From Botryllus schlosseri (taxonomy: Eukaryota): a DNA stretch of 64,000 nucleotides. The stretch is taken from positions 2,668,001 to 2,732,000 of the forward strand of contig CM119372.1 in assembly GCA_051294905.1 (NCBI GenBank), given 5' to 3'. A model generated the notes under the pieces. That model made no database searches and was not told where the DNA came from. It saw only the letters and a program-made list of their open reading frames with translations. The translations under genes were made by a program, and so were the position numbers. Of the stretch, positions 18,005 through 64,000 are shown piece after piece; position 1 is the stretch's first letter, and each line of letters opens with the position of its first letter.

Positions 18005-18006
18005 AT

Positions 18007-18024
18007 TGGTGTCAGAAGTCGGAT
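18007..18024 (+). promoter_or_regulatory. Primer-binding site, tRNA-Leu type
   Basis: TGGTGTCAGAAGTCGGAT, 2 nt after the 5' LTR; near-complement of a eukaryotic tRNA-Leu 3' end (TGGTGTCAGAAGTGGGAT). Confidence 0.8.
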
Positions 18025-18097
18025 TCATAGTTATTTCTGCGACTGAGATTCATCATGCGGAGTCAATCATATTGAAGCTGCTCGAGAAGCAGCAGGC

Positions 18098-23133: not shown

Positions 23134-23166
23134 ATGTGGGCAACCTCTCAACTTACAGGGGAGGAC

Positions 23167-23424
23167 TGTTATGTTTGTGCATTTACGTTTTAGTGTCGTA
23201 CAACTCTTTCTTTCTATAGGACTAGTAATTACCGCCAATCATTATTTCCTCGTGTGTCGTGCTTGTATTTATACCCTTTGTCTTCTGTTCTCTGGTCTTT
23301 CGTTTAACTGAACTCTGGATCGTGTCGCCTGTCTTAAAGTCATACTGCTGTTAATATACTGATTTTTTCACATTGCAACCTAGTCGTATTGAGTTATTGT
23401 TCAAACCAGATCAAGAACATAGCA
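23167..23424 (+). repeat. 3' LTR (258 bp)
   Basis: Differs from the 5' LTR by about 6 substitutions and 3 small indels (counted by eye). Confidence 0.95.
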
Positions 23425-36236: not shown

Positions 36237-38148
36237 CTTATGACCTTATGTGGTACACATAAACACTTGGCACGCCTACGCCGATAAATTCCATTGGAAA
36301 AATAATTACTGAAAAAACTTGTAGAGTTCATTACCATAAGCAAGAGGATGACAATGTAGCATTCTCATGAAAACCAGAAATCAGATTTGAATTAAAATTA
36401 GATCAAAAAACACATTACAAATTAGATTTTAATTAGATAATCGGCATTTCGATCTACTAAGTCTGATTCAGGGATGGCCAACTTGTGGCCGTAGAAGGAA
36501 ATTTGTGCGGCCGTCGACACGCGATTCAATTGGTAGGTGTTGACGGCCGTCGACATGGAAATTCAATTTACGAATTGACTCCCGAATTTTTGAGAGATTT
36601 TAAATAATCTTGAAATTTTCTTCGCGTACTGCACGATTCAATTGGCCTTCATTTTCGATTTCAATATAGTAGCGCCCTTTGCAATCTGAGCCCCATAGTA
36701 CAGATGTGAACAGCAGAGGAATTTGATGCGCGACATATAGAAATATACCAACTTGGATTCGTGTGCTCGACACGATACAAATTTGTACCTGGTACGTTTG
36801 GGGGACTGTCAGTATCTTTCCACGATACCGACAATCCTGGTGGGAGGTCAAGAAATAACAGGATGCAACAAAGTGAATAATAACAATTGACCCACCCGAA
36901 GATGAATCATCATTTGTAACCTGCCCATTTTTTTGAAAACACCCCTGCATCAACTCGTACCAGCGAATGTGATCAGATAGTCTGAGAAAGGATAAATATT
37001 TGATAATAATATGTGAAACTACTAATATTAATGACGAAATTCATTCATGAATCTGAAAAATTTTTCGCTCTTTTGGCGCGACCCTATCAAACCCCGGAAA
37101 CTATTCATAACATGACCATTCGCGATTTCGATGCTTATAGGAGGACGCATGGTAGCCCCTACCCCCTCTGCACCTCCACATTTCGATATACATTGCGATT
37201 CTGTATGATACCTCATCAGTTTTCCAGTTTCACCACCATATGTGAACTGTGCCGCAATTCCTTCCGATGTCTTGTTATTTTTTTCTTGCGTACCAATCCT
37301 GAATATTGATACGAATGACGCCTGGTGATGTTGGAAGAAGTAATACCACGTTAGGCCTCTGCCATATTTTCAGCATCCAAAAAGTAAATAACATGGAAGT
37401 AGAATTGTTACATCTGAATCTGATGATGTTTTACAATGCCTTGTTAGTAACAAAAAAAAGCGAAGCAAAATATACAAAAGCAGACAGGAAAACAGCAAAT
37501 GAAATTTCTTTATGAGATTCAGCCCATAGATAATTTGCCGTAGCCCTAACTTTCTCCGATAAGAAATGATCACTATTAACGAGTTGGGGAAATTGTTTGT
37601 AGGTAATATCATTGAAATTAAATACAACTATCAAGATGCCCGAAACTGATCCAACTAATAGGTCTGTTAAGTGCGAATCTGCGTCGAAAAATTGCGACAG
37701 ATCCTCGCGCGTAAGAAGGCCCAGATGTTGAACGATGTTTGCAATAACAATAAAGAAGGTCGCGTTGGCTGGGCAATTTGTTGGAAAACCGTCAATTCAG
37801 CATGTTTCATACCTATACCGTAATATTTCTAGAAATAAATACATCGTCCCGTCTAAAAGCCTTGTTTAAACTATAATAGACTATCTCGAAATGCGAATAA
37901 AGATGACATTTCGGCATTTTGGAGCGTCGTCGTCGAACCATTGACTTTTCATGAGAAAAGACGACAAATCTTCCTAAAAGAGGACTTATGGTGGAGCTAT
38001 ACACCATGTACGCGACTTCCCTGTGGGAACTTATCTTAAACATCAGTAAATCTGTGAAAATCAAACGAGACAACAGCAAACGTCTACAATCAAGTTTTAT
38101 TCGAGAACATGAAAAAAGGTTTGTCAAAAAGTGAGTAACTCGCAAATT

Positions 38149-41100
38149 CTAGTTTAGCAGATCAGCGTGTTCCGAGAAAAATATATTTCTGCCCCCCGTC
38201 GGACCTGAATAGAATACACAAGAACATAATTGCCCGATTGAATATAAATGAATTCTTTAAAATTACCACTCAACATACCTACGCTGCACCGTTTTCTGTA
38301 ACATCGTTTGCACTTGACGGTTTTCACGAAATCATCAAAATCGCCCATCCCCGGACACATGCCGCTGTGCAAGTCTCTCGCGTAGAAGTAGCAATTTAAG
38401 CCACGCAGCCCTGTGTCAGGTACAAAACATGAATCCGAATGCGGAAATAACGATAGAAATGGATTTGGTACGTAACAAGCTTCGCGGACAGCAAAGATGA
38501 GAAATCGTTTCTCATTTCGACACATGCCTGTGCGAATTAGCTCAATGCGCTGGGAAAAACGGGAAATTCGGGAAAACTTCCGCGTATAGTCAGGGCGTGC
38601 GTACACACCAAGTTCGCACCCCTTATCTCTTTTTCAATGGCAAAATTGCGATGCCTTTGGCTACATTTCGGAGGACTACATCAGGGACGGGCAACATACG
38701 ACCCGATAAGGGATTTTGACCGGCCCGCTGAGAGTTTCTACCATGAAAGTAAAATTCTATTCTGAAAGTATTAACAAATTTTATGCGTCACAGAATAATT
38801 CCAAGTTTGCTAACCTGAGAAAGATGAACAATGGACATGAAACTACTTGCTCTGTTCTGGTCTACAAACTTTTCGACCATTACCATTAATGAGACATGGC
38901 CGCGTTTCAAAATAACTGCTGTTCACGTTCAGTCTTTACCAAGGGTTTTTACATGCGACATTCAGTCAGAGTTCAAAGAACTTTCTGACAACTTTGACCG
39001 ACCACTGATGACAGATTGACTTCGACAGCTATTGTTGCTAAATTCAATAAATACTTTTTTTGGTCTCTATGCTTTTAACTTAATGTTTGCGTTACGATTG
39101 ATTCCTTGCATAGGTGGCTAATTATGCGATTAATGTAGGCCTATGTATTTTGTAATCCGGCCCGCCAAGTACTTCATTTCCCCATATCCGACTCACCGAG
39201 CGGAGAAGTTGCCCGCCCCTGGACTATACAATTTTTCAAGTATTTCTGCGGCTGTTATTGCACTATCCCCTATTTTAATGCTCATATTAAGCAAAACTAT
39301 GTTATAAAAAGAATGAGTGATACTGTATGAATAAGAACAACTCGAAAATATGAATCGAAGGCGAATCGATTTCCTGCAACATTTTGGAGAAATGGCAAGT
39401 ACATTGTACAACTATATACATGGTTTTGTTTTCAAGGACAACTCTCATCTTTAGGTCCTAATCGGTGGTAAGACTGATTTTGGGGAGAACAGAGAAGCTC
39501 AGATATGAATATATGAATGCGAATTCGTGTTTCATGAAATTCCCCCTTCAAATGGACCTCACAAATAGCCCCTTCCCCTAATGTTCTTACTATCCAAAAT
39601 TCCCAATGATGCTGTGTAACTATATTTCCTCTCACCGCATGTCTTGCCAATCTCGTTGTTGCATGCGGCGTCAGGCTCGTTGTTACATTCATGAAAGTCG
39701 TAGCATTTCTTCAGGCATTTCGAAGTTTCGAAGATCTTGACCTTCAACTCTATTAGTAAATGATTATGATTATTATTTGTCGATATGCTATTTCATATTA
39801 CAAATGGCAATGGAATAAATCAGTTTAAATATTTTAAAATTCCTGGCCATCGTCAACTTAAAGGTTTCATATAACTACATCAGTTTCTGTCCTCGTTTTG
39901 ATGTCGGAAAACGACATAATGTATGTTACTGACCAAATCACGAAATTGTCACCTACTGTCATCAATACATTTTTGCCTGCAATTCCAGCACGGGGCGAAG
40001 GTGGCAGTTGCGTTTGTTGTAGAGCAGACTTCGGCACACGGAGAGTGGATGGAGTACTGAAGACATTCGTGAAAGAATGGAGAACAGGAATCGCCTGAAA
40101 TATTGCATAAAGGGCTTCAAACTCTGTCATGCAGCTCTACTTATGTGACTTCTTATATGTAGCATAGTATTGGTATTCTGCTGGTAACAACAATTGAGAT
40201 GAACCGAACTATGTAGATTTAGTTCATCTGTATCATTCATCAACTGCTCAATGACACTTTTTACATGAGGTTTACTGATACAGAAGTATACAATGCCGCT
40301 AACCTACGTTACATTACATATGTTCATTGATGTAGCAGCATGCTATCATGATAGAGCATTAGAAAATAAACATTGCTCATTTAAAGGTTGGCGTGGCAAG
40401 ATTGCAACCAGTCTCTAACCATAGATAACTAACGTACGGGTAGATGCGAAACATCTGACTACACGGTTGGGTAACCAATCATGTCATAGAGATCGGCATT
40501 GCTGCGGCTGTGAACAATCGGAACGCCGCGATAGGTCATTGTTATGGTCTTTTATTACGGCCCTTCGGTTGTTCGCAGCGATGCCGATTTCGACTTTTAT
40601 AGGCCATTTTTGGGTGGTTGCGGTGTCCTGATCAGCAGTGTTGGGATGAGTTGAGTCATGACTTGACTTGACTCGAGTCACTTTGCTAAAATGACTTGAC
40701 TTGACTTGACTCGGCGCATCAGAAATGCGGATTGACTCGTGACTCGGAGCAAAATTCACGAGTCAATTTCAAGTCATCAAGTAATCGGGATCGATAAAAA
40801 TCACAGTAACTGGCATATGTTCGTATTGTGCGCGAAGCGCGGGTTTTATCCGTGAGAGCGATCAATCATTCAATGATCGTGCGTTTTACTGAGCCTCCAT
40901 TGTTCTCTCACAAATAATTCGACCGCAAACGAAGTGATCGAAGCTTACAGCTAACGTTGTCGTGAACTAGTATAGGCAGGGTTGCCATACCGTCCTTATT
41001 TCTAAGATTTGTCCTTATTTTGAAGGGCTCGGTCTTAGAAAACTCAATTGTCCTTATTTCTAAGAAATGTCCTTGTTTTCGACTTGCGTCCTTATTTTGT

Positions 41101-44100
41101 CTTATTTTCAACAACTACAGAACTTCGATCGTTTTCCTCAGGTATCTATGTTGCATAATAATTTAAATTAAGCTTTTGCGTTGAGATTTTATGACATCAT
41201 AAATGAACGGAACTCCCGTGGCGTACACACCACAGGATTTGACTATAGATAACTGACTAACCGTAGGTTAGTTATCTATAATTTGACTTCTAAGTGTTGA
41301 GATAGCTAGGGAAGTGAGTGGTATAGCTATAGAAATTAAACATGGAACGGCAACGACCGATTTTGCAGCTTCGTTCCGCTTCGCCGAGGCTGGAGTGGAG
41401 AATTGTTTTGCGTAAGCGACTGTAGGATTTATGGCAATCCAAAAGCTATCTTCCCGAGCGCAGAAATTATTGAATCTGGTCTTGATCGAAAGCTACTGTT
41501 GCACCGATTCCGAGAATATAAATTAAAATAATGATCAGGGTCTGATCCACCTGGAATCCGTCCTCAAAGTCCGAAATATCGGCATTGTTCGAACAATCGG
41601 AGAGTCGCAACGGGTCATTGTTATGGTCATTGTGTTGCGGTTACCCGATTGTTCTGAACAATGCCGACATTTCAGACTTGGAGGACAGATTGTAAGTGGA
41701 TCAGTGCCTGATCAATATTTTAATTTATATTTTCGGAATCGGTGCAACAGTAGCTTTCGATCAACCCAGATTCAGTAATTTCTGAGCTCGGGAAGTTAGC
41801 TTTTGGATTGCCAGAAATCCTACAGTCGCTTACCAGAGATGAGCGGATTTGAAATTTCTATGTCCTAATCCAATCCAAATCCGAACCTTCAAATCCAAAT
41901 CCAAAACCTAATCCATAACTTTTTCATATTCAAGTCCATGTCCAATCCTAATCCGATTCCAACTGGAAATTCAGAAAAAATACTAATTTATGCAATGGAG
42001 CGATTCGAAAATTTTCTTTCACAACCAACGATTCACTTGATTCAAGATAACTTGGTAACCATAAGTACAATAATAACTGATCTGAATAAAGTTTGTCGCC
42101 ATTCGCCACACGACATTTCAATCTCCCAGAAAATAGGTGAATCCAATCCAAATCCTAATCCGTTCTGAAAAAAATGTCTGATCCAAATCCAATCCAAATC
42201 CGACAAAATTTCGCAAATCCTGTTTTTTCAAAACCTAATCCTAATCCATGCTCATCTCTGTCGCTTACGCAAAACAATTCTCCACTCCAGGCTCGGCGAA
42301 GCGGAACGAAGCCGCAAAGTCGGCCGTTGCCGTTCCATGTTTAATTTCTATAGGTATAGCAGTTTCAGCTGTAGCCTACAAAGCTATCGCAGCGGACGTC
42401 CTTTTAGCAGTAAACGATAGCATAGGCACCAACTTGCGAGTTTGCGTGCGCCAGCAATTAGGCGAATCTACGCGACCGCGTCAGAGACGTCGTCGCTATA
42501 ATCAGAAAACAGTTGTCGCGAGGCGGCTGCTCAAGGGAAAAGTGCGGCACGCGACGCTATTCATAGCGGCCGCGAAAAGTTGATTCGAATTAAAAACATA
42601 AAGCCTACTTTTGAACGGTGATGCGTGGATTAAAACGACAGGCTGTAAAAACTAAACCGCAAATTCGTTTAATTTGAAGCCTGTTCAATAATATGCCGCG
42701 ATTACGCAATCGACGTACCTCGCATGCGTAATCCAGATTCAAAATAAAGCCGATGTAGCAAACGGTGCCGTAGTAATTGAAGTCACAAGAAGTCTCTCTT
42801 TCCTTATAGTTTAGTATTAAAGTTGAAGAGTGTTCGTTCTTGTTTGGCGAAGTAGGCCAAGGAGAGGAACAGACTTAGTAAAATGACAGTCAAACACTAG
42901 TTAAGGTAAACCTAGACCTGAGCTGTCGTGAAATCCATGAAGCACTTTTTAAAAACAAGGAGTTGCTGGAGCAGATTGTTTCCGGTAAAAAGTATGGAAT
43001 GTGATATGCCACGGCTCGTATAAATACAAAGTACGTGAAAATCGTATTTTAATGTTATCTAATTTTTCGACTGTCCTTATTTTTGGGTCCATATAGATGG
43101 CAACCCTGAGTATAGGAGAGTCATTTAATAGCAAAATGTCTATTTCTGTTCTCTGTTCTTACCTTAACCAAGCCTCTTACTTTATTGAAATTAAATTCGA
43201 ATAGTATATAGTGGGGTTACCATATTTTTGCGCGCAAATTCCGGACACTCTTTAGCGCCCACTAGCGGACTAGCGGAGGTATGTCACATTGTCTTTCAAT
43301 AAGAAGTCACACTAGCACTGCTTTGCCCATCGACCATAGGTGGTCACTATCCGGATCAGAAGCTGTTATAATGTTCGGTCGGTGCATTTCTATGGTTGTG
43401 TGTTCTTGTAACCAGGATCGCAACAACATTTTTTTCAGCCCCCTCCCGTCCAAATAAACACTGATCTTGAGCCCGCCATAGGGTAATCGATGCAACTTCT
43501 GGGGACTTACTATATACATACATATAGTTTCTATATGCATCTGGTCGTTAACGTTTGTGAATAAAATCAGTCTATATTATTGCTTCTTCCATGTATTACT
43601 ATAAAATATTGATCCTTTCTCCGCCCACATGATAACAGTTAGCGGTGGAACTGGTGGAGGACGATAACTTCGAATATACGGGGAACGAAATTATACATCT
43701 TAAGGTCATGTCATGTCACACGGTACAGACAATTTATCAGCCTAAATGCAGATCCGCACCAGCAGGTTGCACATCCGGTGGTATTCAACCTTTCATGGTC
43801 GCAACTCCATTTCTAATCTAAAAACGTTTTTTGGCCAAGCCTAGAATTTGATAAGCTGATTCCTGAAAAACGGTCAGCACCATTGCACAGACTTACTCAC
43901 GGACTATATTGGAAGCTGTTTACGTTCACATCTTCGCAAACCCCAGAATAAAGACAAACGACCCCCAGGTTTGGAGCCAATATCTTTGACTAAAGCATCT
44001 GAATGGCCTTAACCAACTCCAGTAATATACCGTTGTACCATAATTGCGATTACTATTAGATTTATTTTAGTAAATGATGGCTATTTTAAACAATGCATAT

Positions 44101-46441
44101 TAAAATCAATGATCGCGACACTATATCGCGCGGAGCGCGAGGAAAAATTTTAAGTGGCATAAGTCTGCCCAAAAATAATAACTTTCTGTTGATTTACTAA
44201 AACATTTTGATCCCATTTTAAACCTTCAAAATTCCGGATATTTAGGCATATTTTAGAAATTTCTTCCGGACGCAGTTTTAGCAGTGAAATTCCGGACGTA
44301 TGGCAATCCTAATATATAGTCCTCAACCATTGTCGCAGGCTCGATTTGTATCATATCAATTTGTATATGGGTAATGTATCGCATATTATCAATTCGTTTC
44401 TCTATTCTCTATTTTGGTTGGTAACTATAAACTGAGGCTATGCAATTACTTACGTAGTTTAGCGATACAGCGCCTTCTTGCGTTTATCTATTTATCTCTA
44501 TATTCGTTCATCGGTTCAAAATCATTGAACACGCAATCTGTATTTCAGACAGCTAGCATAATTCAATGACGTAATCATGCCTCATACTTCGAAAAGGCAA
44601 CTTGACTTGAATTCTTACTTGACTCGTGACTTGACTTACTCGACTTGACTCGAGTCACCTCCAAAATCGAGTGACTTGACTTGACTCGAGTCACCTTCAA
44701 AAATCGATTGACTTGACTTGAATAGAGTAAAAATGTGCAATGACTCGAAATGATTCGTGACTCGAAGGTAGTGAGTTGATCCCAACACTGCTGAAAAGAT
44801 AATAATATATATTGTTTGAATCAATGTGACAGTAGTTTTCGTTCAAGAACAATTTTCATAAATATTGCTCTCGTGTCGCAAGTTCTAAGATTGAGTTTGA
44901 TGACGTTTCTCATTTCCTTGGTAGTTGCAGGCAAAGTTACAAAAACAACGCTACGAGAAGTTGCAAAAACAAGACATACAATATATTTGTCAGATGCAGC
45001 CTGAATATGTTGCGATTCTCCTTAACTTTTACTAATAACATTTTCGAATATAATTCAATTATTAGGTCTGCTAAGTTCGAAATTGCGCTAGTCACATTGC
45101 GACACATTCCCGAATGTAAAATGACCCAGACGTTGCGGAGAATGCGGAGCGATGTGTGCAATAACAATCATGAAGGTAGAACCGGCAGGGACATTTGTTG
45201 GAAAACCTTTTTTAAGCCAGTAATTCAGCATGTTTCATGACTACAGTCATTCTTAGAAATATATACGAAATACGAAAAAAGAAGACATTTGGGTAATTGT
45301 GACCGTTCTCGTAGGACCGTTGACTTTTCTTGATATAAAAGGGCAAATCCTAATAAAAGTGTTCATATGGTTAGCCGTAGTAACATAACAACATATTTGA
45401 ACACAAAGTTACGAGAAATTGGTAGCTCACTACAAGTTCTGCCCAGACATTCGACGCATTTGTCGGCGTACGCGTCGATCATAGCTAGAGATCGGTCGAT
45501 GTTTTGGCATGACCCTCCCTCGTCACATCCTTTGAAACATTTGATCAGGTGTTCTGAAACGTAGTACCACGGCCTACGCAGTTGTGGACGTCGCCTCCCC
45601 AATTCAGCAACCGATGCCACGACGCCTGTGAGTAACCATGGGAGTATATTACTCGGACAAAGTACTACAGGTCGTTTAGAGGCAATAGATCATAGCAAGA
45701 AATATTCGCATAATGTAGGCTACTTGTAAAACAGGAATTTCATTATCATTGATATTGAATTGAAATTCACAGGCATTATATAGGACAATGCCAATCTACA
45801 CATATAAACGATTTAATAGCAAGCAATAATGTGTACTTAACAGTGACGAAATATGATTATCAAATAAGTGATTAAGTGTCATTCGAGATTCAATAATTTA
45901 GGACGGAATCGAACCCAAAAATCCTTCTTGCTTCGGACACAGACTATATTCATTGGAATTACCTGTCACAATAGTCATTTATGCCGTTCTATATGACTTT
46001 ACTGATACCGATACGATTGTTTATCTACAATGTCCCTATAATTCTTACTGGTTGTGTACGATTACTCCTGACGAGTGTAAGCCGAAAATATTCGGGTTCA
46101 TTTCAATATGGATAATATATATAAAATTCTAATGTATATTGAAGTTCTGTATCTCCGACGCAGTCTCTTCAATAATAACTTTGAATAGTATATTCATATT
46201 GAAATGAACCGGAAAAGTTTTGGCTGACACTCGTCAGGGGTAATCGTCAGCAACTAGTAGACGATTACCCCTGACGAGTGTCAGCTGAAAATATTCGGGT
46301 TCATTTCAATATGAATATACTATTCACCTGTATATTGAAGCTCTGTACCTCCAAGAAGCTGTTCAAAGAATAACGTTGTACATGAAAAGTATACTCACCA
46401 GACATAAACATGTATATGACTAATTTCACGAATCGTGACAT
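38149..46441 (-). CDS. Uncharacterised secreted cysteine-rich protein A (~225 aa)
   Basis: Exons 46441-46399, 45625-45431, 40094-39957, 39749-39636, 38410-38279, 38204-38149 (last exon less certain; AATAAA at 38096-38101 supports it). All introns GT-AG, phase 1. Translation: MSRFVKLVIYMFMSGVVASVAELGRRRPQLRRPWYYVSEHLIKCFKGCDEGGSCQNIDRSLAMIDAYADKCVECLGRTCSDSCSPFFHECLQYSIHSPCAEVCSTTNATATFAPCWNCRQKCIDDKLKVKIFETSKCLKKCYDFHECNNEPDAACNNEIGKTCGLRGLNCYFYARDLHSGMCPGMGDFDDFVKTVKCKRCYRKRCSVGPTGGRNIFFSEHADLLN. Exon-by-exon match to paralog B. Confidence 0.8.
38682..39221 (+). mobile_element. Charlie-type element family E (older copy), intron of gene A
   Basis: TIR cagggacgggcaac/gttgcccgcccctg; homologous to 47496-48068; TSD eroded. 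Confidence 0.8.
41327..42353. mobile_element. Fold-back palindromic element with CTATAG termini
   Basis: About 290-bp inverted arms covering almost the entire element once MITE B is removed; flanked by GTATAG direct repeats. Confidence 0.75.
41834..42260. mobile_element. MITE family B
   Basis: Perfect TSD TCGCTTAC. Confidence 0.92.
43212..44311. mobile_element. Non-autonomous hAT-type element, same family as 643-3012
   Basis: TSD GTATATAG/ATATATAG; shows the empty site of the family C insertion. Confidence 0.82.
46048..46375. repeat. Tandem short palindromic elements (~65-bp TIR GACGATTACCCCTGACGAGTGTCAGC...)
   Basis: Forward-reverse-forward arms at about 46058, 46185 and 46260; related copies near 34900-35030 and 56198-56300. 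Confidence 0.7.
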
Positions 46442-47495
46442 ACTTTATCTGTCTTGCGAGTGTGTGGTCGCTACCTCACTGTTTGTCAATAGTCCTGCTT
46501 CCTTTGGCATAACTTATGCGACTGCTGTTTTTCGCATTGAGACATCAGTGTGATCTGGATTGCAGAAAAAAAAATGAAGATGATTTCCAACGCCAAGTAT
46601 ACAATGTGCAGGCTGCATCGCGCGGCTCCGAGGCGCCCATTAGAAGGCTGGCATTAGAAATTAGGCACTTTTAAAATAGAAATCTGCAAACCGTCTATAT
46701 ATCCATAGTCATACCCAGTGAATAGAATGTCAACGATCACGTTACTTATAAAGGATAGAACAGTAAAGTTACCGTAGTAAGGATAAGCTTCACAATAGCC
46801 AGAACAAGTCGATATCTCATCCATCAATTTGTTTATGGTTATGTGACAAACACAATGCTGTGTGTCAGCGATGTTAGTCAGAAACCGAGTGATATACCCA
46901 CCCAAGTGGCTTGGCAGTAAATGGCCAATTATGAATAATCCTATTACGCGCGCCGCGTGAAGTTGTAGGAGTTAATCTGATCGTTACATCATGATAATTA
47001 CCGGCCAATATCCGATTGCGTTATCCCGCATTACCCTTGCACCGACGTGTGCCGAAGGACAATTATATCGAATATATGTATTTGCACTACACAACCGCCC
47101 ACTTTGCAATATGTGGATACCGGCTAATGACAATTTTCCGTACAACACAACAGTATTCTTTAAAATGCTTATATTCGCCACTGGAGAGGCCATATAGACG
47201 GATGAAGTCGAGTACTGGACTTTATTATTGTGTGTTTTACTCTTGAACTGATTATAATCAGGGGTGGAAACCTGCACCCCGCGGAATAGATTTGGCCCTG
47301 TAGCTATTTATATAAAAGTCAAAGCATTCGATATAGGAGAAATATGTTTGTATAAGCTGATATGATGTTATTTAATATATTTATGAATATCGCCCTATAT
47401 GTAAGTATAAAATCCCGCATTTAGAAAGTAAGGGCGTCGAGAAGGGATGAAAAAACTGCTAGTTTTTTTGTTGTTGTTGTCAGAATCATGTAAAC

Positions 47496-48068
47496 CAGGG
47501 TGGGCAACTTACGGCCCGCGGGCCGGATCCGGCCCGTGACGGGATTTTGAGCGGCCCGCAGACATATTCAACCCTGAAAGAGAAATTCCAATCTGAAACA
47601 TGGACATGGACAATTCTTTTGCGTAACTGAATGAATCCGAATTTGTTAACCTGAAAAAGATAGCCATCAACTATTTGTTCTGATCGTGTCTACATACATT
47701 CGCGTGTGAATATTTTCGATCATGAAAATTAACAAGACAAGGCTGCGTCCCAATCTAACTGATGTTTACATGCAGTCCTAACTGAGGACTTCTTAGTCGG
47801 ACATGGAGCCAGAGTTAAGAGAATTGTTGATAACTTTGATCGACCACACATGCCTCATTGACTTCAACAGCTATTGAAGTACAATATAGGTCGGTAAATT
47901 CATTAAATACTCTTTTTGTCATACTTTATGCATTAACCTTGAAGTTTACATTCATTCCTTGTACAGGTGGACAAATACGCGATTAATGCATTGATTCAGG
48001 AATCTGGCCCGTCAACTGCTTCATTTTCCCATATCCGGCCCTCCGACTGGAGAAGTTGCCCGCCCCTG
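47496..48068 (+). mobile_element. Charlie-type element family E
   Basis: GGCCCGCGGGCCGGATCCGGCCC subterminal motif; TSD ATGTAAAC/ATGCAAAC; internal decayed transposase C-terminus. Confidence 0.88.
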
Positions 48069-48419
48069 ATGCAAACGCTTTAGTTTTAAGTAGATACTGC
48101 TTAATTCCCCATAGCAGAGGTGGAAGTCGAGCGGTGAATTTCCGTTTTAGCTTGACACAAGATATTTCCCCATTACATCGGATCGAATGGCCACTGATGA
48201 TTTACGTATGCATAGTCTTTCAAAATCAGTGGGTGATACTTTGATATATTTGCTCTCTGCTTTCTCGGATTGGGTGGTGATGGGGGACCCAGATAAACCT
48301 CCTACACCTGGGTACGACCTGTAACATTACCAATCCTGCATAAGCAGACGTGTGTTTATATTTGGTTGACGCGGGCCAGACCATATGACTTGGGGAATCT
48401 TACAACCATATGTAGCGGT

Positions 48420-48612
48420 CAGAGGTGGCCAAAGTAGTCAAGAAAGCTACTCAAGTAGACGTAGAAGTAGCGACGAAACATTCTACTCAAGTACGGGTAG
48501 AAGTACTTCTTCCATAAGCAGCTTAAAACTACTTGAAATAAAAGTAGAATCGACTAACTTTAAATCTACTCAAATAAGGAAGTAGTTGTGAAAACGATCG
48601 TAATTCGATCGC
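48420..48612. mobile_element. Truncated left end of family C
   Basis: Matches 1302-1480. Confidence 0.7.
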
Positions 48613-49839
48613 AGTTCGGGGTTTTTCGAGACACTGCAAATGCAGTGAGATTGGTTTTTATTACGCCTATGCTTAGCTATAGTTTCGGGTTTAGGAGAGA
48701 GTATGAAGTGGTGTAGAGAATAATACTTTGCTGATCATTATCGTCGCCTCTCGCTTCTATCCTTTGGTAATATTATTAATATTATTGATGAAAAGGGGGG
48801 GGGGTGACGCTTTTCGCCTGCGAGGCCAGGTGCGTCACGGACCAGAATGTGCTGTCGGTATACCAAAATGTGGGCAAGAAGCGATTTACAAGTATGTACC
48901 ACACGATAGAACGAAATCTGAAGCATGAGATAACATTTCGGGGATGATCAGTAGATTTTCGAGTGTTGCGGCGATTTTGAGCTCGCGAGCCCTGTCGAAT
49001 AAAAAGTTTCGATGAAAATCGTATCGACGACAGTGCAGCAAAAATGCTCGACTGTTACAGGTACTGTACAATCGTCACATAGATCAGTATCTATCTTTTG
49101 TATTCGATGGTCGTCATGGTCGGCTGCGGTAAAAGTAAAACAAACTTCATATCTCCCCTTTCTGTATAGTGTGTGCCGGTATGAATTGGTTCAGTACGTC
49201 GATTCAGTATAACCTTTTTTGTGCCGTGACTCGACATTGAATGGCGATTTAGTGGAAATGAGCAAAATCTGTCTGAGTTTAAACATTTGATTTAGATTAT
49301 TACTAGAATTTGCGATGTTATCCCTTGGTGTAAACACTGCATCAATAGCATTAGTGTATAACTGTTTCTTGCCCACACACTCATGATAAGTCTGAAGCAG
49401 CCTTCGAGTAGAAATTTATTGTAATTACTATTTCAATTTATTCCCAGTTTCAAAAGAACGTGCTTGCATGGAAATATACATTATTCAAGTCATTGTGATA
49501 GTTGCGATGGGGGAGACTGCAGTTGAGAAAATTTCCTCTTTGCTACCGGCGACGATAGCAGCATCACGGAAACAGATTCTCGTGCTCTCCAAAGTATTTA
49601 GCAACCGAGCTGATCATGGCTGAAATTGGAAAAATGTATTCGGTTTGATATATATTTATAATTTCTATATCTTTATTCATCAATGCTCTACAATTCCACA
49701 ACCCAGTGAACAATATCCAACATAGATAATACATGCAATAAAATACAGAGTTTAAGAACGTTGGATCGCACCATGGGAGTGAATGTAAACTCTGTCTGGT
49801 TGACAGAGAAGTTAATGATTGTTGCTGATTCACGCAGGG

Positions 49840-50283
49840 CAGTGGTTCCCAAACGGTGGGGAATTCTCCACTGGTGGGAAATTTAATGATTTCTGGTGGG
49901 TAATAGACGCATTTGTTCAAAATTATATATAGGACAGTCTACATATTCACGGAGACACATGCGCAATTACCGTTACCAGTTAACTGCTCTCGAATGTATG
50001 TATCGAAAATTATATTGCGTGTTGTTCACAAAACATCATTTTAAACTCTATGGATGGCCAATCATGGCGTCAAAAACGCATCCAGTACGACTAATTTGAC
50101 GTTAAATAACGCTTTTGCGAAATTTTGCGAAGCCCCCCAGAAGTTAGGTTTATCACCCTGCGGGGGCCCAAGAACAACGTTTTTTGGCGGACCCGACGAA
50201 GTGCTGTTACGGTCCTGGTGGGGAATGAAGGCTCGGAATAAATCTGAAGTGGGGAATGAAGACGAAAAGGTTGGGAACCACTG
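49840..50283. mobile_element. Charlie-type MITE containing a family F fragment
   Basis: TIR cagtggttcccaa/ttgggaaccactg; TSD ACGCAGGG/ACGTAGAG. Confidence 0.75.
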
Positions 50284-50358
50284 ACGTAGAGTGACATATC
50301 GCACCTACACGGGTTGACTTGAAAGAAACATATCATCGAACCTTTACAATGCGAGTTC

Positions 50359-53300
50359 TTATCCTGCAGTCCATGAACCCTCGGGGGGTCCGACGACTGT
50401 GGCTTCATAAACGGATAATGTCGACCGCTATAAAACTATACTGTATACTTAATTATAACATATGTGCCCTTATTTTCACTGATTTTCAGTATTCATCACG
50501 GCCAACATAGCCACGCAGACGATAGAAACATTAATAATTATACTTTAATTGGTAATCAAGCCGTGACCAGGGCTAGACAAAAGTAATGCAATCATCTGCC
50601 TCTCCACGACATCACAGAAAAAAACCGTCAAGAAGTAGGCAACTGACTTATATGATAAAGAGACAAAATCTAATAGCTGCGTAACGCGATTTATATTTCC
50701 TAATATCACCAGAAAGAAGTGTTCTACGCACTCAGCCTGCATTGCTGCACGTAACATTTCTTGCATTTTTTTGTCGTTTGGAGTTCTTCGGCACTCCGGA
50801 AATGAGAATCCTCGCACTCCTCCAGCGTGAATCTGTGGAACACGTAACACCACCAGCCTTTATAGCCTAAAATTAACAGACAAAATGTTGGGATGAATGA
50901 CGATGAGCAATTGCGCTTATTCACTGCGACACCATTGCTTGCTACACATACCACAATGCTCTCCCATATAATGGCTGCAAGTGCCTAACGGTTCTTCCGG
51001 ACACTGGTATTCCAAATTGCATTTCATCGCGCATTCGTTTGCAGCCAATACCTTTTTCTTCATATCTAGGAATTATAACCGCAAGTTGAAATAAGTTTTG
51101 AATTGAAATGCTCAATGTTATAATCATACTTCGCTGGAGTAATAAATGCTACGTTAGAAAATACACAATATAGTAGGAGGGCAAGATATATATAAACATA
51201 AGCTATCATATATAGTTGTACCAGGGGTGGTCAAAGTAGTAAGTGTTTATATTCAAATAGAAGTAGCAATTTCGAAGACTTTTCACAACTACTTTGAGTA
51301 TACGTGGAAAATGTAAATTTGAAAAGTACTCAAGCAGGTACTTTCTAAAATCAGATTATGGTCAATGGGTCACATACATTTAGCAGTCATAATGATATAG
51401 TCCGTTTCGATATTGCGGGTGCATCTTCGCTATACTAACGCAAAATGAGCAATTAGGGTACAAATAGGTGTCATTTTCAGAAAACATATTAAGTTTTCAC
51501 GATACAGGAGATCTTTTACCAAGTTGTCGTGACCATTCCACTTCTGATAGGTAGCCTATTATATCAGGGGCGGGCAACTTAGGGCCCGCGGGCCGGATCC
51601 GGCCCGTAAACGGATTTTGAGCGGCCCGCAGACATATCCAACCCTGAAAGAGAAATTTCAACCTGAATCATGGACATTTTTTGCGTGACTGAATAAATCC
51701 GAATTTGCCAACCTGAGAAAGATGGCCTTCAAACTACGTGTTCTGATCGGATCTACGTACATTCGCGTGCAAATATTTTCGATCACGAACATTAACAAGA
51801 CAAGGCTGCATCCCAATCTAACTGATGTTTACATGCAGTCCATACTGAAGACTTCTTAGTCGAACATGGAGCCAGAGTTGAAAGAACTTGTTGCTAACTT
51901 TGATCGACCACATTTGTCTCATTGACTTCAACAGCTATTGAAGTACATTATGGTTAGTAAATTCATTAAACACTGTTTTTGTCATAGTAAATGCTTTAAA
52001 CTTGATGTTCACATTAAATACGATTTATTTCTTGTATAGGTGGACAAATACGCGATTAATGTATCGATTCAGGAATCCGGCCCGTCAACTGCTTCATTTT
52101 CCCATATCCGCCCGGCCGACTAGAGAAGTTGCCCGTCCCTGTATTATATGCAAGCATATCCCGAAACTAATTCCTACTTTATACAATCCAAAGCGTAAAA
52201 ATGATGCAGATTGCCTGAAATAGAAGTGGAATGAGGCAATCCAAAAACATTACCTCTTCAGTAAGTAGTTCAAGCTGGAAAAACCTACTTGAATTCTTTG
52301 CAAACGTAGAAGTAAGCCTACTTCGTTACCGGATACAGCTCTGAGTGCTACTATACGTTGCATTAGCTGTGTTTGAAGCATGGTGACTTGTATGATAGTC
52401 TTACCTTCACTGACGCATTTTTCTCTGCACATGTGGCAGTTTTCAAGTCTATCGTACAGCTCTTTCGTAAATGTGCAAACACCGTTGCAGCCAATATGTG
52501 CGAGGTGGATGCAGTCGTACCAAAATGGAGACATGGTATCACCTGTAGAAAAGCAATAATTACATGTCATGATGCAGCAAGCTCATGTGCGGTGGCGTTA
52601 TAAACTTGCGCCATGAAGTCTTGTATGACATAGTCAGTAAAGCATAATCTACTTACTACATTGTTTGGAGTAGCATGTGACGCACTCGGGAGGCGCTTGT
52701 CTGGCAATTTCCTCGTTTTGCTCTTTGGTGTAGCATGAATCTGGACCTACACATTCGTGCAAGCAATCTCTGACTTGCGGATAAATTTCATTCCAGAGAC
52801 TGACATGCTTATTGGTTTCATCTGAAACATATATCCAGCGTGATATGCAAACATAAATGCGATTGACATTATGTTACGAGCAGGACCGAAACAGCACTTC
52901 GTCAACCCCCCCCCCCCAAAAAAAACACGCTGGTCTTTTCCCTCCCCCCCCCCCCCCCCCCCATAGGGGGATAAACCAAACTTCTGTAGGGCTGCGCCTC
53001 CAGACCACCAACAACCTGTACGTTTTTACCGCTATTTATCAACGATGTTTATTGTGCTAATGAGTGAGTAAGCCTATATCGCCTAAACGCGCGAAACGCG
53101 AAACGCGAAATCTTTTATAATTCATTATTGAATCGGTCGATATGATCGGAAATAGCATGTATATTGCTATCATTTTTTATCATCTCTCTGCTCACGTAAT
53201 CAGATTTAGCAATAGAGCTCAACTAGGCGTATCGGAAAATGTAGGGCCCGTAAACAATAATTAAACATATTCGGGCGAATCAGTTGGTGTATTGACTTCG

Positions 53301-55358
53301 TTACATGATGTTATTTCGTGACCTTCTGTCTGCTATGTCAAAAATATTGGAAGCGCTCTAATGTACCAAACTAAGAGACGAACACGATTTTAGATTGGTA
53401 TTTCTTCACTGACAAATAATTTGTCCAGCGGAAGGACATTTGTCTTGTGAGGTTCAGATTGCCAGGACAGGACAGGCCTAAAACTTGATGTCTTGGTGCG
53501 TTGCGGCGCGGTAATGGACGACGCCGAAATGCCCATTTCTGTAAGGGCAGAGATCATGAAGATAGATTACCGATAAAATCGACAATCGCGTTCACCATGA
53601 TTCAACAACTCAGGATAACAGACCCCAGTTGATCGCAGCGCACGAAGTTGGTTTAAATCTCATGATTTAACAAACCGGAACTAACTATTGTTAACTAGTA
53701 ATCTATAAAAATTGCGTAGTCTACACTGCGTAACATTTCTGCACCATTGCATAGCGATATATCTATCAATATTATTTATTCCGTTTCTTTACTGTACCGT
53801 ACTGATTACGCACGGCTTTCTTTTCGCGGAGATAATAATTCTACCTATTATAGTCGCAGTACCTTTATCAGCAAGCCCCTGTGTCATTCAACAAGTTGAC
53901 AACTGTGACAGACAATAACGCCTTTTCACATTATGATGAAGCAGATAACACCACTTGATTAAAAACTTGGACACCTCGAGTATTCATTGCGCGTAACCTT
54001 ATCCAACTTTATGCGTCGCGATTAGCAGTTTATAATCATACGATTAGCATTATTCGGGATATGCTAACTTTATGATCTCCGCCTAAAATGAGTCCCGATC
54101 ACCAGTTTTTAATCACACGATTAGCAGTTTGCCGGATCAGCTAAATTCATGATCTCTACCCTAAATCATGTGTATATTTTCGCGGGGGAAGGGTACCCAA
54201 CAATCCAGATATTTGACACCAATAAATCGCGCGCAGCTCCCAAAAAGTTGCATATATTTTCAAAAAATATTCTTTATTTTATGTTACATCACGAAATAAT
54301 TTGGGCCCCCCTCGAGCTCGGCCCCCAATTGAGGGGTTTGGGGTGTGGCAGTTACGGTCCTGATTACGGGCAGAATCTATCGCCCCGACTGTATATTTAG
54401 GGTAATCGGACAGAAGGGCGGGCCAGCGAGTTATGTAGCGGGTAGATATATCGACGTGACATCAACGGAACTGCGTGTGAATCAGCAACAAACATGTCGG
54501 CCTCAGTAATTAGAACACCGTTATCATCGAACATCAACAAGCATGGTTCTGAACAGACTCGACAACTGGATGATTAATTGATTATAGTTTTCCAATTGGA
54601 CTAATTAGAGAGCGAAATCTCGGTGATCTAATTTTCCTCTCCTTTGTAAAATCGTTTTACGCTCTAATTTCAATTCTAGTCCAATTTCTGGTTTTCCTGA
54701 AAAAGATACAGAAGAGCTGCGTATAGTTCGAATCGAGACAAGCTTGTTTTACAGACATTTCCACACTCACGCTCTTGAGAATGGGCTCTGATTTGACATT
54801 GGCGTAACTGGATTTTTGTTTTAACTTCTTCTAATTCTGCATTACATTCAAATTCAACGTTTTTGCGAATTCAGTAACTAATTATAATCAGTTTTGGAAT
54901 ATCTGCGTCGCCTACATATCAATTTGGCCCAAAGTTAAAGGCTACACTACATGGAAGCAGGTCAATTATTCGAACAGGCGACCGCGGAGTATTGCTCCTT
55001 CAAATTCCAATGTGTTAAGTTATGCTAAACTGAAAAATAGAATGCTCTTTGAGGTATATTACCACGAATTTATTTGTGACCAACTGAGCAATGTGACAAT
55101 GACCAACGCACTTAACGTCGTAGTTGTAAGATGTTTTTCGTCACTAAAACCATAGTCATGTCGAACGCACTCCACTGATTTCCTAAAACCGACGAAAAAT
55201 GGCAACTCAATGCACATCCAAGCTACTTTCTAACTGAAGGATTTACAACGACTTACGTCAGACCCAATATTTTTCATACCTTCATCTGGTGATCCTAAGT
55301 TGCCAGGACAAATATTGAACCAGCATAGAAGTAAAGCGTATGCGCTCGATTTCTTCAT
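50359..55358 (-). CDS. Uncharacterised secreted cysteine-rich protein B (~212-222 aa), paralog of A
   Basis: Exons 55358-55280 (Kozak caccgccATG), 52821-52657, 52542-52405, 51065-50952, 50866-50732. These are followed either by tentative exon 50396-50359 (IVGPPEGSWTAG*) or by read-through to TAG at 50724. All GT-AG, phase 1; exons 3 and 4 are the same length as in A (138, 114 nt). Translation: MKKSSAYALLLCWFNICPGNLGSPDEDETNKHVSLWNEIYPQVRDCLHECVGPDSCYTKEQNEEIARQAPPECVTCYSKQCSDTMSPFWYDCIHLAHIGCNGVCTFTKELYDRLENCHMCREKCVSEDMKKKVLAANECAMKCNLEYQCPEEPLGTCSHYMGEHCGYKGWWCYVFHRFTLEECEDSHFRSAEELQTTKKCKKCYVQQCRL... Confidence 0.8.
51222..52343. mobile_element. Family C-related element hosting family E (intron 3 of gene B)
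   Basis: Ends caggggtggtcaaagtag / ttcgttaccggatacagctctg; TSD AGTTGTAC/AGTGCTAC. Confidence 0.55.
51565..52141 (+). mobile_element. Charlie-type element family E
   Basis: Perfect TSD TATTATAT; closely similar to 47496-48068. Confidence 0.92.
52881..54362. mobile_element. Family F element (intron 1 of gene B) with an internal insert at about 53548-54158
   Basis: Inverted homology to 11687-12974; TSD GTTACGAG/ATTACGGG; insert bounded by cagagatcatgaa/ttcatgatctcta. Confidence 0.8.
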
Positions 55359-56528
55359 GGCGGTGCTGCAGACCCGATATTGCAAGTATAGTATGATATC
55401 CTCTCAATACCCTAGCGAGTGTCATGAGTATAGGAAAATGTCACATATATATTTGGCTTGTCTCATGCCTTCGAGCCATTATTTGCTTGTCACCATAGGG
55501 CAGTGCACACTGTACTTTACAGCTATGTCTTTCAGGTGCCCGTCGTATATGTCGCCGTTACTTGAAAAGGTGTAAGATGAATGACCATCAGAATGGGATG
55601 TTAGATATACATTCGTAAACGTCTCGCAAACTGTCGATGTTTTGGAACGTGAAGTTGTAAATTTATAGACAACCGAATGACAGTATGCGCTAAACATAAC
55701 GACTATTTGTCACAATCGATGCATGTATAATAGTTGACGTTATGTTTATCATGGATAGTCAACATCATCGCTCGGACATATTAGAAATGCTGTTTCAGTC
55801 TGAATAGTATAAATATCCTGATCATCACTCATCATTGCTCATTAGATGTGTGTTGATCACGAAATTAGTAAGCCTGATTGCAAAAGAATGTTTCGCGATT
55901 TGAATCCAAGGCTCTGCTGTGCAGCTACTGAAATCAATCATTCGTGAATTGCACGTGAACTAACTTTCGTAATTCTTGCTCATACCACTTACCACAGTTG
56001 TATTTGTTAATTGACTAATGATTGAGATATAGTGATGAAGGTTTAATGTTGGACATATGCAGAAAAACAAGGAATGAATTCGGAGCTGCATAAGTAAATT
56101 ACGGGAGAACGAACGAATGTCAAGCAGCGACGACCTCATGGCTATAATATATATATACATAAAAGAATACATATACAAGCTTCTTTCCAATTCTCTGCTA
56201 GTTGCTGACCATTATCCCTGTCGACTGGCAGCCGAAAATATTCGGGTTTATTTCAATTTGAATATACTACGCAATTGTAAATTGAAGTTCCGTTCCTAAG
56301 CTCTTTAATCAACGTAAAAATGCGTATAAATTGATTGGATATGGATGTGGAGCTCTCTGATGCTCTCTGAAGCCCAAGCCTTCAACCGAGTATAGTTTGC
56401 TCACTCATTACTTCGTCCTAAGCGCTACCTATCCAAGAATCTCCTTCTTATTGAAAATATTCATAAACGGTTATAAATTGCTGAAATGCGTTTTCACCTA
56501 TCCAATAGGATTCTGTACATGTACAAGT

Positions 56529-56870: not shown

Positions 56871-58480
56871 CGTGGTCAGGTAATCCTGAAGGCTGACTAG
56901 TATTCATTTAGAAGAAATTGCTTGTATTTCGACCTGAATGCGGACATGCTGGACGACTGTCGGATAGCTGTCGAGATGCTGTTTCACAATTGGGGTCCGG
57001 CATACTTGATGGAGTGATGCGTTTTCTTGTATTTCGTCCTGATCATATGGTAGTTGTTCTCCGTTGAAGCGCGTGTGCCGCACTTGTGCGCTTTTGACTC
57101 CGAGGGGAAGTAGCCTATAGACGTTGAAATTTGAGGGACATTGCCATCAATTGAACTGATACATAAACTGGACAATTTCAAGCTTCCTCGTATATTCTAT
57201 GCTTACAACACGAGTAGATTTATCATGATTTATCAGTCGCACATCCAGGAACGGCAATTTTAGCGTTGGATATTGGTTGGCCAGCGATACCAACGGTTAC
57301 GTTATCGCAGGAGTTATAACGACCAATAATCGGAATTTCGCAGCGTTATCCCGAAGGCTGTTATGGGACGTCCTCTCATGCACTTTGGGCATTTGATCAC
57401 GGGTGACCGCATTCAAGCTTGCGGTAGTATAGGTGCGTGAGATAGGAGGTGAGTATCGTCAGCGAACAGTGTGGTATTTAGTGATGATGTTTCAAAGACA
57501 CCATTGACATATAAAGTTAAAAGGACTGGTCCGAGAACTGAGCCTTGCGGAGCACCACAAATAACAAGGTGCGGGGAGGATAAGGTGTTGGATATCGAAA
57601 CCATTTGAAATCTCCCAGTCAGGTAGCTTTTCATGAGCTCTAGTTGTGGACCCTGGAACCTGTAGCGCGTCGATTTCGAGAGAAGAATATACTGTGATCG
57701 ACGCAGTCAAACGCTTTTTTAGATCAAGAAACATGGTTCACCCCACACTTCGTTTCTCCAAGATGTCGTATAGTACTGTTCAGCCACTGTTAGCAGGACA
57801 TGTGTATAGAGGCCTTTCTTCACGGTACATGCAAGTGTTTATTCCAACAACATAACCCAAACCGGGCGTATACCGGGTGAATTTGAAAAATATTTTTGGA
57901 TCAGGATGGAGTTGGACTGAATTGGAAAATTTCAGGACTGGACCAGAACTGAAAAATATCACAGTCCACTCCTTAATGCCACACATGCGAGGTTGGACGC
58001 GTTAAGCGGAAGCCGAATTGTTGTGGGGAAATGATGGACATCTTGGTGAGGAACGAAGATTGGCGGGATAGGAGCAATTTTTCGAATACAATTCCTATAC
58101 GCGGTAGGACAGATATAGGTCGGTAGCTGGTGACATTAAGTTCTATCTCCGACTTTGTAAACGGGTACAACTCTGGCAGTTCTCAGATGATTTGGGTAAA
58201 CACCATTTTCTCTAATGAAATTGAAAAAATGGGCAATGAAATGGCCGATGAGTATGGTAATTAGTTTTAAAAACCAGACTGGAATTAGATCATATCCATC
58301 AGCCTTATTGGATTTAAGTTCCTAAATGGCGAGTACCACTTCCGTGGAAGTTGCAGGCTCGATGATGGATTGGGATACCGATACCGATTTAACATCAGGC
58401 CTGGTCATCGCAGGTTTCGAAATAGACAAGGCGATTTTATGGCCTACATTGCAAAAATATTCATTAAAGTTCAAGTTTGA
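56871..58480 (-). pseudogene. Decayed CR1/L2-group LINE ORF2
   Basis: Fragments in changing frames: EYFCNVG, SYRPISVLP, QQFGFR, FLDLKK, GAPQGSVLGP, LFADDT; homologous to 62780-63700. Confidence 0.85.
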
Positions 58481-58543
58481 ATCGCCGGCTCTCCGACAGT
58501 CAATCAATCAATCAATCAATCATTGGGTTATAATTTTCATCTA

Positions 58544-61731: not shown

Positions 61732-62403
61732 ACATAGCCTTTATAAGGGCGATGACCTTTCGCGAATTTTTTTGTAGCGAGATATGGCTCAATGAATTGA
61801 AACCGCATTCTTATGCGTGGGGGATGTTGTCGCAGAAGTGTTTATGAATTTTCTTGTTTGTGATATGCACTTGACACGAAAACTGTACAAGAAATAACTA
61901 TGCACCGGTATGCAATGCATCGATAATCACGCAAGCTTCATATCCGATTCGCCGTAAAGTAGTAGTTTTTGATTAGGTTTGGATTCAAACTTTATGTAAA
62001 GCTGGACGACGGATTTTTTATACGACCTGCCTGTTATGTTAAGTTAGTGTTCGATTCGCTATGTAATCGCAATATGACGATAGACTTTTAAATAGAGTTA
62101 TATCCACTGACTTCGACATGACACGCGAAATGTATTCGAGATTTGAATTTGGACTTGGATTCGGACCTGGAATTAGAAAACGATTTGGATTTGAAGATAT
62201 TAAATTCGCACTATGCTTTATCTCACGGCACGCCGAGCTTCGAATATCCGAGTTTTTTCTCTATAGTTTCTTCAGCGATTACCAGTGAACTCGGACCTCG
62301 GAGAACCCGGCCTTACAAACTCGGCCCTCGGACCTCGGTGAGCCCAGCCCTCGATGAACTCGGCCCTCGGTGAATTCCGCACTCGGGAAATTTTGTATTC
62401 ACC

Positions 62404-63875: not shown

Positions 63876-63876
63876 A

Positions 63877-64000
63877 CCCAGCAAACACTCGATGTCCAGT
63901 TGACTTCCGGTGGAATTGCCGGCAGGACGTCCGGTAACTTACGGCCGTCACCTCCCTGGAGTGGGTTTGTCGACAACTAGAGACGTCCTGTCTGCCCCCT
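63877..64000. mobile_element. Probable left end of another DNA element (CCCAGCAAACAC...), cut by the window edge
   Basis: Abrupt switch from the minisatellite to a terminus-like sequence with GACGTCC motifs; other end not visible. Confidence 0.35.

Follow-up and report, generated by a model that had tools for sequence, protein, structure and literature searches.

The analysed window, a 64-kb stretch of Botryllus schlosseri DNA, carries two related six-exon genes on the minus strand, here called gene A and gene B. Gene A specifies a product of 228 aa. Its exon 1 (55280..55412) comprises ~54 nt of 5' UTR and 79 coding nt (55358-55280), which begin with the ATG at 55358 and encode a predicted signal peptide. 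Exon 2 (52657..52821, 165 nt) encodes module 1, with six cysteines in the arrangement Cx3Cx5Cx16Cx2Cx4C, and exon 3 (52405..52542, 138 nt) encodes module 2, with six cysteines and an SPF motif. Five cysteines each are found in exon 4 (50952..51065, 114 nt), together with an EP motif, and in exon 5 (50732..50866, 135 nt), together with the motifs GxxGxxCY and KCKxCY. Exon 6 (49398..49619) holds 56 coding nt (49619-49564, with the stop at 49564) and the 3' UTR, with AATAAA at 49442 and 49420.

Gene A is spliced as a six-exon transcript, as judged by a length sum. Contig 15 of the RNA-type run X2 (907 nt, depth 25.1) has exactly the summed length of the six exons (133+165+138+114+135+222 = 907). 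Two of its six pieces were displayed directly, exon 2 (record positions 134-300) and exon 6 with its UTR (record positions 686-907, corresponding to 49619-49398), both with 0 differences. The 133-nt first piece was deduced from the record coordinates of the contig and a bin depth of 5.78, and the inner exons rest on the length sum and on bin depths, for which predicted and observed values were 9.49/9.49, 5.64/5.72, 5.00/5.44, 5.90/5.82 and 5.78/5.78. Exons 3 and 4 additionally align with a Styela protein described below, and the length of exon 5 was set by the 907-nt sum. A read-through stop in exon 5 was considered and ruled out by the same sum.

Gene B specifies a product of 225 aa. The coding part of exon 1 (46399..46441, 43 nt) encodes a predicted signal peptide and has an in-frame stop just upstream and a GTGAGT donor. 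Exon 2 (45431..45625, 195 nt) contains module 1, whose N-terminal stretch is basic, and exon 3 (39957..40094, 138 nt) contains module 2, with seven cysteines, one of them extra, and one N-glycosylation sequon. Exon 4 (39636..39749, 114 nt), exon 5 (38279..38410, 132 nt; X2 bin depth 3.34) and exon 6 (38149..38204, 56 nt including the stop, with AATAAA at 38101) come from the exon model and align with the Styela protein. Contig 13 of run X2 spans exons 2-4 in 492 nt and displays exon 2 directly, and predicted and observed bin depths of 2.02/2.03 and 2.38/2.36, the latter for exon 3, agree with coverage of exons 2 and 3 and of part of exon 4. Gene B is thus partly confirmed as a spliced transcript, over exons 2-4, and its exon 1 and exon 4-5-6 junctions are predicted. 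Accordingly, the proposed splice junctions are backed by RNA in gene A through the length sum and in gene B for exons 2-4.

The two genes share their architecture. All ten introns are phase 1 with GT-AG borders, and exons 3, 4 and 6 (in its coding part) are equal in length; the original prediction had noted this for exons 3 and 4, and the per-exon cysteine spacings are as it described them. The gene A protein contains 22 cysteines in its mature part and two in the leader, and the gene B protein contains 23, the extra one being in exon 3. Across six-frame translations of the window, the four exon cysteine patterns have 2, 2, 2 and 3 occurrences, compared with means of 0, 0, 0 and 0.03 (maxima 0, 0, 0 and 1) in 100 shuffles. 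Global alignment of the two proteins scored 234.5; the highest score among 2000 shuffles with cysteines fixed in place was 112.5. Taken together, the exon model, the cysteine-pattern shuffles and the RNA contigs bear out the presence of two paralogous minus-strand genes. The signal peptides were called by hydropathy: the only hydrophobic 19-mer peak in the proteins is the N-terminal leader, whose hydrophobic stretch is short in gene A, and the products are likely to be secreted. An internal duplication relating exon 2 to exons 4+5 gave local z scores of 3.0-3.8 for three exon pairs and a profile probability of 0.4%, and may be entertained as an unproven possibility. At the DNA level, the only similarity linking the two gene regions is a MITE-like repeat (51568..52141) in intron 3 of gene A, with copies at 47498-48068 (86%) and at 38688-39221 (69%) in intron 4 of gene B. 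A third paralogue was not found within the window; the search was confined to this stretch, so the family may have further copies elsewhere in the genome.

A full-length relative is present in Styela clava, the 230-aa "uncharacterized protein LOC120342489" (XP_039267264.1), which by BLASTP is 30% identical to A and 35-37% identical to B (E 1e-30 to 2e-35) and has the same cysteine frame and the same motifs. Two newer Styela models (XP_077967119.1 and XP_077967120.1/LOC144420996) meet at a break that coincides with the boundary between exons 3 and 4 in A and B, and they are likely to be halves of one gene. The Styela protein differs from A and B in an extra cysteine in its exon-5 part, a tail longer by 12 residues and three N-glycosylation sequons. 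It is a database prediction with no name or function, and no paper citing these accessions was found in the literature searched. In the three-way alignment 21 cysteines are aligned, and a 22nd is displaced by gap placement in exon 5. The motifs SPF, EP, GxxGxxCY and KCKxCY had been described as the only residues shared; they are indeed present, but among the 165 columns of the three-way core 20 non-cysteine columns are invariant (~11 expected under a naive independence model), and with three sequences these do not separate core from surface conservation.

The original prediction took the fixed cysteines and divergent intervening residues as typical of proteins for recognition, defence, gamete interaction or metal binding, with recognition as its main reading. 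A polymorphic self/non-self or gamete recognition protein would fit the fixed cysteine scaffold, the 19-31% identity at non-cysteine positions and the excess of unique changes in A over B (31 versus 17, Tajima p 0.043). However, synonymous sites between A and B are saturated (pS 0.73, pN 0.48), so that dN/dS is not estimable. Because of this saturation, and because each of A and B shares more identities with the Styela protein (58/186 and 72/186, respectively) than with the other (52/186), the divergence appears old and no arms race is shown; an old duplication accounts for the same counts. The divergence thus looks like that of old paralogues, and would neither show nor exclude positive selection. 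Polymorphism speaks weakly on this point: the displayed X2 contig pieces, 584 nt in total, show 0 differences and may come from the same strain as the assembly. The known allorecognition proteins fuhc and fester have EGF, sushi or Ig domains or membrane segments and high allelic polymorphism; unlike them, A and B have no Pfam match to EGF, sushi or Ig domains and no membrane segment. Furthermore, only two copies lie in the window. We consider a recognition role of this kind improbable, and the argument from a variable surface is unsupported. Gene B is likely to be the orthologue of the Styela gene, and gene A would be an older or faster-evolving copy.

The assessment that the family belongs to no assigned group held in every search, its only relative being the uncharacterised Styela protein. 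Pfam gave no match to the Styela protein at E up to 10 and one chance match (APOBEC4, E 2.6) to eight exons, and nine queries of NCBIfam gave one weak match (TIGR04292, E 0.028, against a cut-off of 200 bits). Neither collection revealed an enzyme domain or any other domain in A or B, and no EGF, sushi, Ig, peptidase, defensin, macin or inhibitor family matched in Pfam. PDB sequences yielded two chance matches at E ~1. The Atlas gave no usable feature match and structural TM values of at most 0.37. Word-based protein searches confirmed 0 of 2 candidates when the exon-3 alignment was run on longer proteins, 1 of 198 with the Styela protein and 1 of 266 with Styela plus an exon 3/4 profile, and neither of the latter two reached beyond Styela clava. 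None of 32 pattern matches in metagenome contigs was confirmed. An exhaustive HMMER search with the 46-column exon-3 pair had two matches, one being the Styela protein and the other an ankyrin protein of Artemia (E 9e-4), which was set aside as chance similarity over a short repeat. As this was the sole exhaustive search, relatives in Ciona, Phallusia or other species may have been missed. A literature search, with most subscription journals and supplements outside its scope, found no description of the family.

Fold comparison was attempted as originally proposed, and a model was obtained but proved poor. The AF2 model is all-helical over 33-140, with block pLDDT of 50-79 over 31-130; overall its mean pLDDT is 46.8 and its pTM 0.39, and the C-terminal half has a pLDDT of 37.2. 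Conserved hydrophobic columns show helical spacing, e.g. 118/122/126. With the C-half model left aside, Foldseek gave no match at E 0.001, and the VIA fold search returned generic bundles only among the best 50 matches listed. The low-confidence model suggests a helical N-terminal half with likeness to generic bundles only.

A loose resemblance to ascidian vanabins had also been raised. Vanabin cysteines form repeated C-X(2-4)-C pairs within a bow-shaped helical fold, and the proteins bind V(IV) via Lys/Arg and have V(V) reductase activity. A vanabin-like metal chaperone or thiol-disulfide redox protein would agree with the ascidian host, the helical model, Lys/Arg adjoining cysteines in exon 5 and the close cysteine pairs, as 9-10 of the 21-22 spacings are of 2-4 residues, mostly in CxxxC and CxxCxxxC groups. 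Vanabins such as Vanabin2 (PDB 1VFI) and VanabinX, from Ascidia and Ciona, are likewise cysteine-rich, and helical structure and close cysteine pairing may be further points in common. However, Pfam, which presumably contains a vanabin model, gave no match; 1VFI was matched neither among PDB sequences nor among the 50 listed VIA folds, and likeness to its fold can be judged only as far as the poor model allows. Vanabins have 18 conserved cysteines in a compact core with nine disulfides, and VanabinX has 16 (PMC9486056), whereas A and B share 22 in three modules over ~165 aa, with four gaps of 10-16 residues. Vanabin hosts are vanadium-rich; the nearest relative of A and B comes from Styela, a member of the Stolidobranchia, whose vanadium content is below that of Phlebobranchia (bioRxiv 10.1101/2023.06.02.543482). 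Judged by cysteine count and sequence, vanabin membership fails, and we rate such a function as having little chance.

Plant alpha-hairpinins are disulfide-tied helical hairpins, and a comparable fold could serve an innate-defence effector, either antimicrobial or a protease inhibitor, released by blood cells or tunic. The products are small, likely secreted and cysteine-rich, B is cationic (pI 8.3, 29 K+R), and expression differs between runs. Styelids have cysteine-rich haemocyte proteins, e.g. rusticalin of Styela rustica, which is also secreted and ~23 kDa when mature and carries two defensin-like Cx6Cx6-7Cx8Cx7CC repeats and an MD-peptidase domain (PMC6339383). In contrast, A and B lack a CC doublet and a peptidase match, pI values of 5.4 and 5.6 make A and the Styela protein acidic, matches to defensin, macin or inhibitor families were not obtained, and dibasic sites between the modules are not conserved. 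We regard a defence role as unlikely, though less so than a vanabin-like one. The odd cysteine count (23) of B and the Styela protein leaves a possible free thiol, as would suit a structural component cross-linking tunic, mucus net or adhesive through interchain disulfides. This too is improbable, as the extra cysteine lies in different exons in the two proteins and is missing from A, low-complexity or repeat regions are absent, and both genes are barely represented in two bulk RNA runs.

Our best guess is that the family consists of secreted ligands or binding proteins, low in copy number (two in the window and one cluster for Styela), with a disulfide frame not described before and a predicted function. 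We favour, at a probability of roughly 0.45, a reading in which A and B are old tandem paralogues encoding secreted helical hairpins of ~23-24 kDa with ~11 disulfides, which would serve outside the cell as ligands or binding proteins and dock on a conserved partner. The leader would send the chain into the ER and, as there is no second hydrophobic segment, the product would be released as a soluble protein. Exon 2 (six cysteines), exon 3 (six) and exons 4+5 (ten) would form three disulfide-closed modules, in which CxxxC and CxxCxxxC line up cysteines along one side of a helix and link it to its neighbours. The invariant patches SD-xx-SPF, EP, G-xx-CY-xxx-R, the basic KCKxCY and a C-terminal F-x-E would supply the core and a binding surface, and the basic patch could, speculatively, bind sulfated glycans. 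A further-reaching version, which we hold doubtful, is a class of secreted ligand confined to tunicates, serving signalling or recognition and built on a new helical fold laddered by disulfides, with three exon-bounded hairpin modules; its acidic and basic paralogues would differ in their conditions of expression and act on a receptor or sulfated glycans, e.g. in budding, regeneration, metamorphosis or colony recognition.

Secreted cysteine-rich proteins restricted to one lineage are common in invertebrates. In tunicates, annotation overlooks many extracellular signals and immune effectors that lack a homologue in vertebrates. The ligand reading has a precedent in Hemps of the stolidobranch Herdmania, a secreted metamorphosis signal with "novel cysteine-rich repeats" (PMC3760835). 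It has four EGF repeats, absent from A and B, and three of these cysteine-rich repeats; the HMMER search and the word-based searches with the Styela protein did not return Hemps. Together with the Styela protein, A and B constitute an undescribed, conserved and expressed family whose members are of a size suited to expression and structure determination. If their disulfide-stabilised helical scaffold proved new, it would extend the catalogue of folds; nothing links them to a process, which limits their weight.

Coverage of A and B was modest and varied by sample. Both genes were covered in run X2. In run X18, three B bins had low coverage, a signal that consists of bin depth only and draws on 13% of that run, whose depth on three A bins was 0. 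In run X14, coverage of both genes was near zero. Their opposite charge (pI 5.4 versus 8.3) and apparently different expression suggest divided roles of A and B. Separately, a poly-G artefact at 52903-52965 swamped the read-joint table, and 219 joints were masked.

Reading of the minus strand, combined with a scan for cysteine-rich exons bounded by AG and GT, recovered the exons originally predicted for two tandem genes, gene A (coding exons from 55358 to 49564) and gene B (46441-38149). Each has six coding exons and five introns, all phase-1 GT-AG, and the products are 228 aa (A) and 225 aa (B) long. Exons 3 and 4 are equal-sized in the two genes (138 and 114 nt) and the cysteine spacings hold, as had been claimed; exon 6 is likewise equal (56 nt). 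The mature chains have 22 cysteines in common, that of gene B carrying one more. The window contains 2, 2, 2 and 3 matches to the four exon cysteine patterns, versus means of 0, 0, 0 and 0.03 in 100 shuffles. The A-B alignment score was 234.5 against a maximum of 112.5 among 2000 shuffles with cysteines kept in place, indicating that the likeness rests on more than cysteines. No third copy was found in the 64-kb window.

Of 24 listed sequencing runs, four were compared with window positions 37950-55550. X2, labelled 'RNA?', skipped introns and had no depth at 46755-47341, an intergenic bin poor in repeats, thus behaving as cDNA; X1, which includes pieces of introns, behaves like genomic DNA. 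A 907-nt X2 contig contains gene A exon 2 (record positions 134-300) and exon 6 with UTR (686-907), with 0 differences. These two of the six exon pieces were seen directly, the remainder through five observed bin depths, all within 0.5 of prediction, and through the six exon lengths, which add up to exactly 907; this sum sets a length of 135 nt for exon 5, and exon 6 is confirmed. Gene B exon 2 lies within a 492-nt X2 contig, and bin depths are consistent with exon 3 and with a portion of exon 4; exon 1 and the final junctions are placed by splice signals and homology. Depth in repeat-free bins of gene A was near zero in two raw RNA runs (6% and 13% of reads used). Gene B had low depth in three bins of X18 (0.3-2.2 per strand) and almost none in X14. 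These data, which for X14 and X18 are bin depths without displayed joints, suggest that expression is sample-dependent and differs between the paralogues.

Used as query for an exhaustive HMMER search, the exon-3 sequences of A and B identified the uncharacterized LOC120342489 (E = 3.3e-7) of Styela clava, by taxonomy a stolidobranch ascidian. Its 230-aa form (XP_039267264.1) aligns full length, at E = 1e-30 to 2e-35; A shares 30% and B 35-37% identity with it, and 21 cysteines line up in all three proteins. Newer Styela annotation divides this older model into two halves, LOC120342489 (133 aa) and LOC144420996 (115 aa). The division coincides with the boundary between exons 3 and 4 in A and B, suggesting a conserved intron at that position. 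Judging from A and B, the split itself is probably an annotation or assembly artefact. Further protein and metagenome-contig searches of limited reach returned no relatives beyond the Styela cluster; given that reach, a limit of the family to styelids is unproven. A literature search confined to article texts found no paper citing the Styela accessions or describing a 22-cysteine family (ascidian expression tables in supplements could name the genes), and the family also goes unmentioned in the available passages of PMC13079984, bioRxiv 10.1101/2025.05.20.655184, PMC12212465 and PMC7435645. We conclude that the family is real, expressed and undescribed, its sole relative found being one uncharacterised database protein. 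What is new is the cysteine framework; what is familiar is the lineage-restricted secreted cysteine-rich protein.

Across 186 ungapped core columns, identities number 72 for B-Styela, 58 for A-Styela and 52 for A-B, and unique changes number 31 in A, 17 in B and 11 in Styela (Tajima p = 0.043). Two histories fit: a duplication before the divergence from Styela, which would make B the orthologue, or an acceleration of A. The A-B comparison gives a pS of 0.73, which is saturated, and a pN of 0.48; the only similarity left between the introns of the two genes is a MITE in A intron 3 with a copy in B intron 4. Twenty of 165 non-cysteine columns are invariant, versus ~11 expected under a naive independence model; the three proteins are an old, constrained family. 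These data neither show nor exclude the rapid diversification put forward in the original prediction. A polymorphic recognition factor is improbable.

Our preferred reading, at a probability of roughly 0.45, is that the products are soluble and work outside the cell as ligands or binding proteins. The chain would enter the ER, and ~11 disulfides would close three modules, one encoded by exon 2, one by exon 3 and one by exons 4+5; CxxxC and CxxCxxxC groups may tie helical hairpins together, and conserved patches could touch a partner. The protein might also be a defence effector, which is unlikely, or a structural cross-linker, to which we give little credence. Low copy number, modest sample-dependent expression and the retained non-cysteine motifs lead us to prefer the ligand or binding protein over bulk metal storage or a hypervariable family. 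The paralogues are opposite in charge (pI 5.4 and 8.3), which together with their differing coverage suggests divided roles. The finding would be weightier were A and B shown to act as ligands of a new fold in some defined process of tunicates.

Vanabins, to which the genes had been loosely likened, have the cysteine pattern C-X(2-4)-C. The available text of one account describes a bow-shaped core with 18 cysteines and nine disulfides, binding V(IV) via Lys/Arg (PMC9486056). On cysteine count (22 versus 18) and on sequence, A and B fall outside the vanabins; as to the fold, a low-confidence model with a helical N-terminal half matched generic bundles. A vanabin-like metal or redox protein is very doubtful: stolidobranchs are lower in vanadium, according to the part available of bioRxiv 10.1101/2023.06.02.543482. 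Ciona neck cells express Vanabin4 in an unclear role, in the passage at hand (PMC11273300), so a vanabin-like design need not serve vanadium storage. Rusticalin (PMC6339383) and Hemps (PMC3760835), as far as the accessible passages describe them, have architectures unlike A and B.

Elsewhere in the window, a multi-exon sulfotransferase gene lies on the minus strand at 30000-25684 (Pfam Sulfotransfer_1, E = 2.7e-4, last exon); its PAPS-binding loop is apparently intact, and it presumably resembles heparan sulfate 3-O-sulfotransferases. The PAPS-binding loop of a second minus-strand paralogue at 8830-5990 (Pfam E = 1.4e-6, last exon) is without the Lys and Gly-Thr of the first, and from its sequence this copy is likely catalytically inactive, although the inspected exons are open. 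At ~17750-23450 lies a Ty3/Gypsy-like LTR element whose terminal repeats match; a MITE interrupts it at ~20320-21200. Decayed non-LTR reverse-transcriptase-like fragments (~56900-58500 and 62560-63700) are flanked by a short G-rich tandem repeat near 62400-62550 and 63700-63900. A small palindromic element (46046-46378) lies a short way downstream of exon 1 of gene B; each of the four runs covered it highly on both strands.
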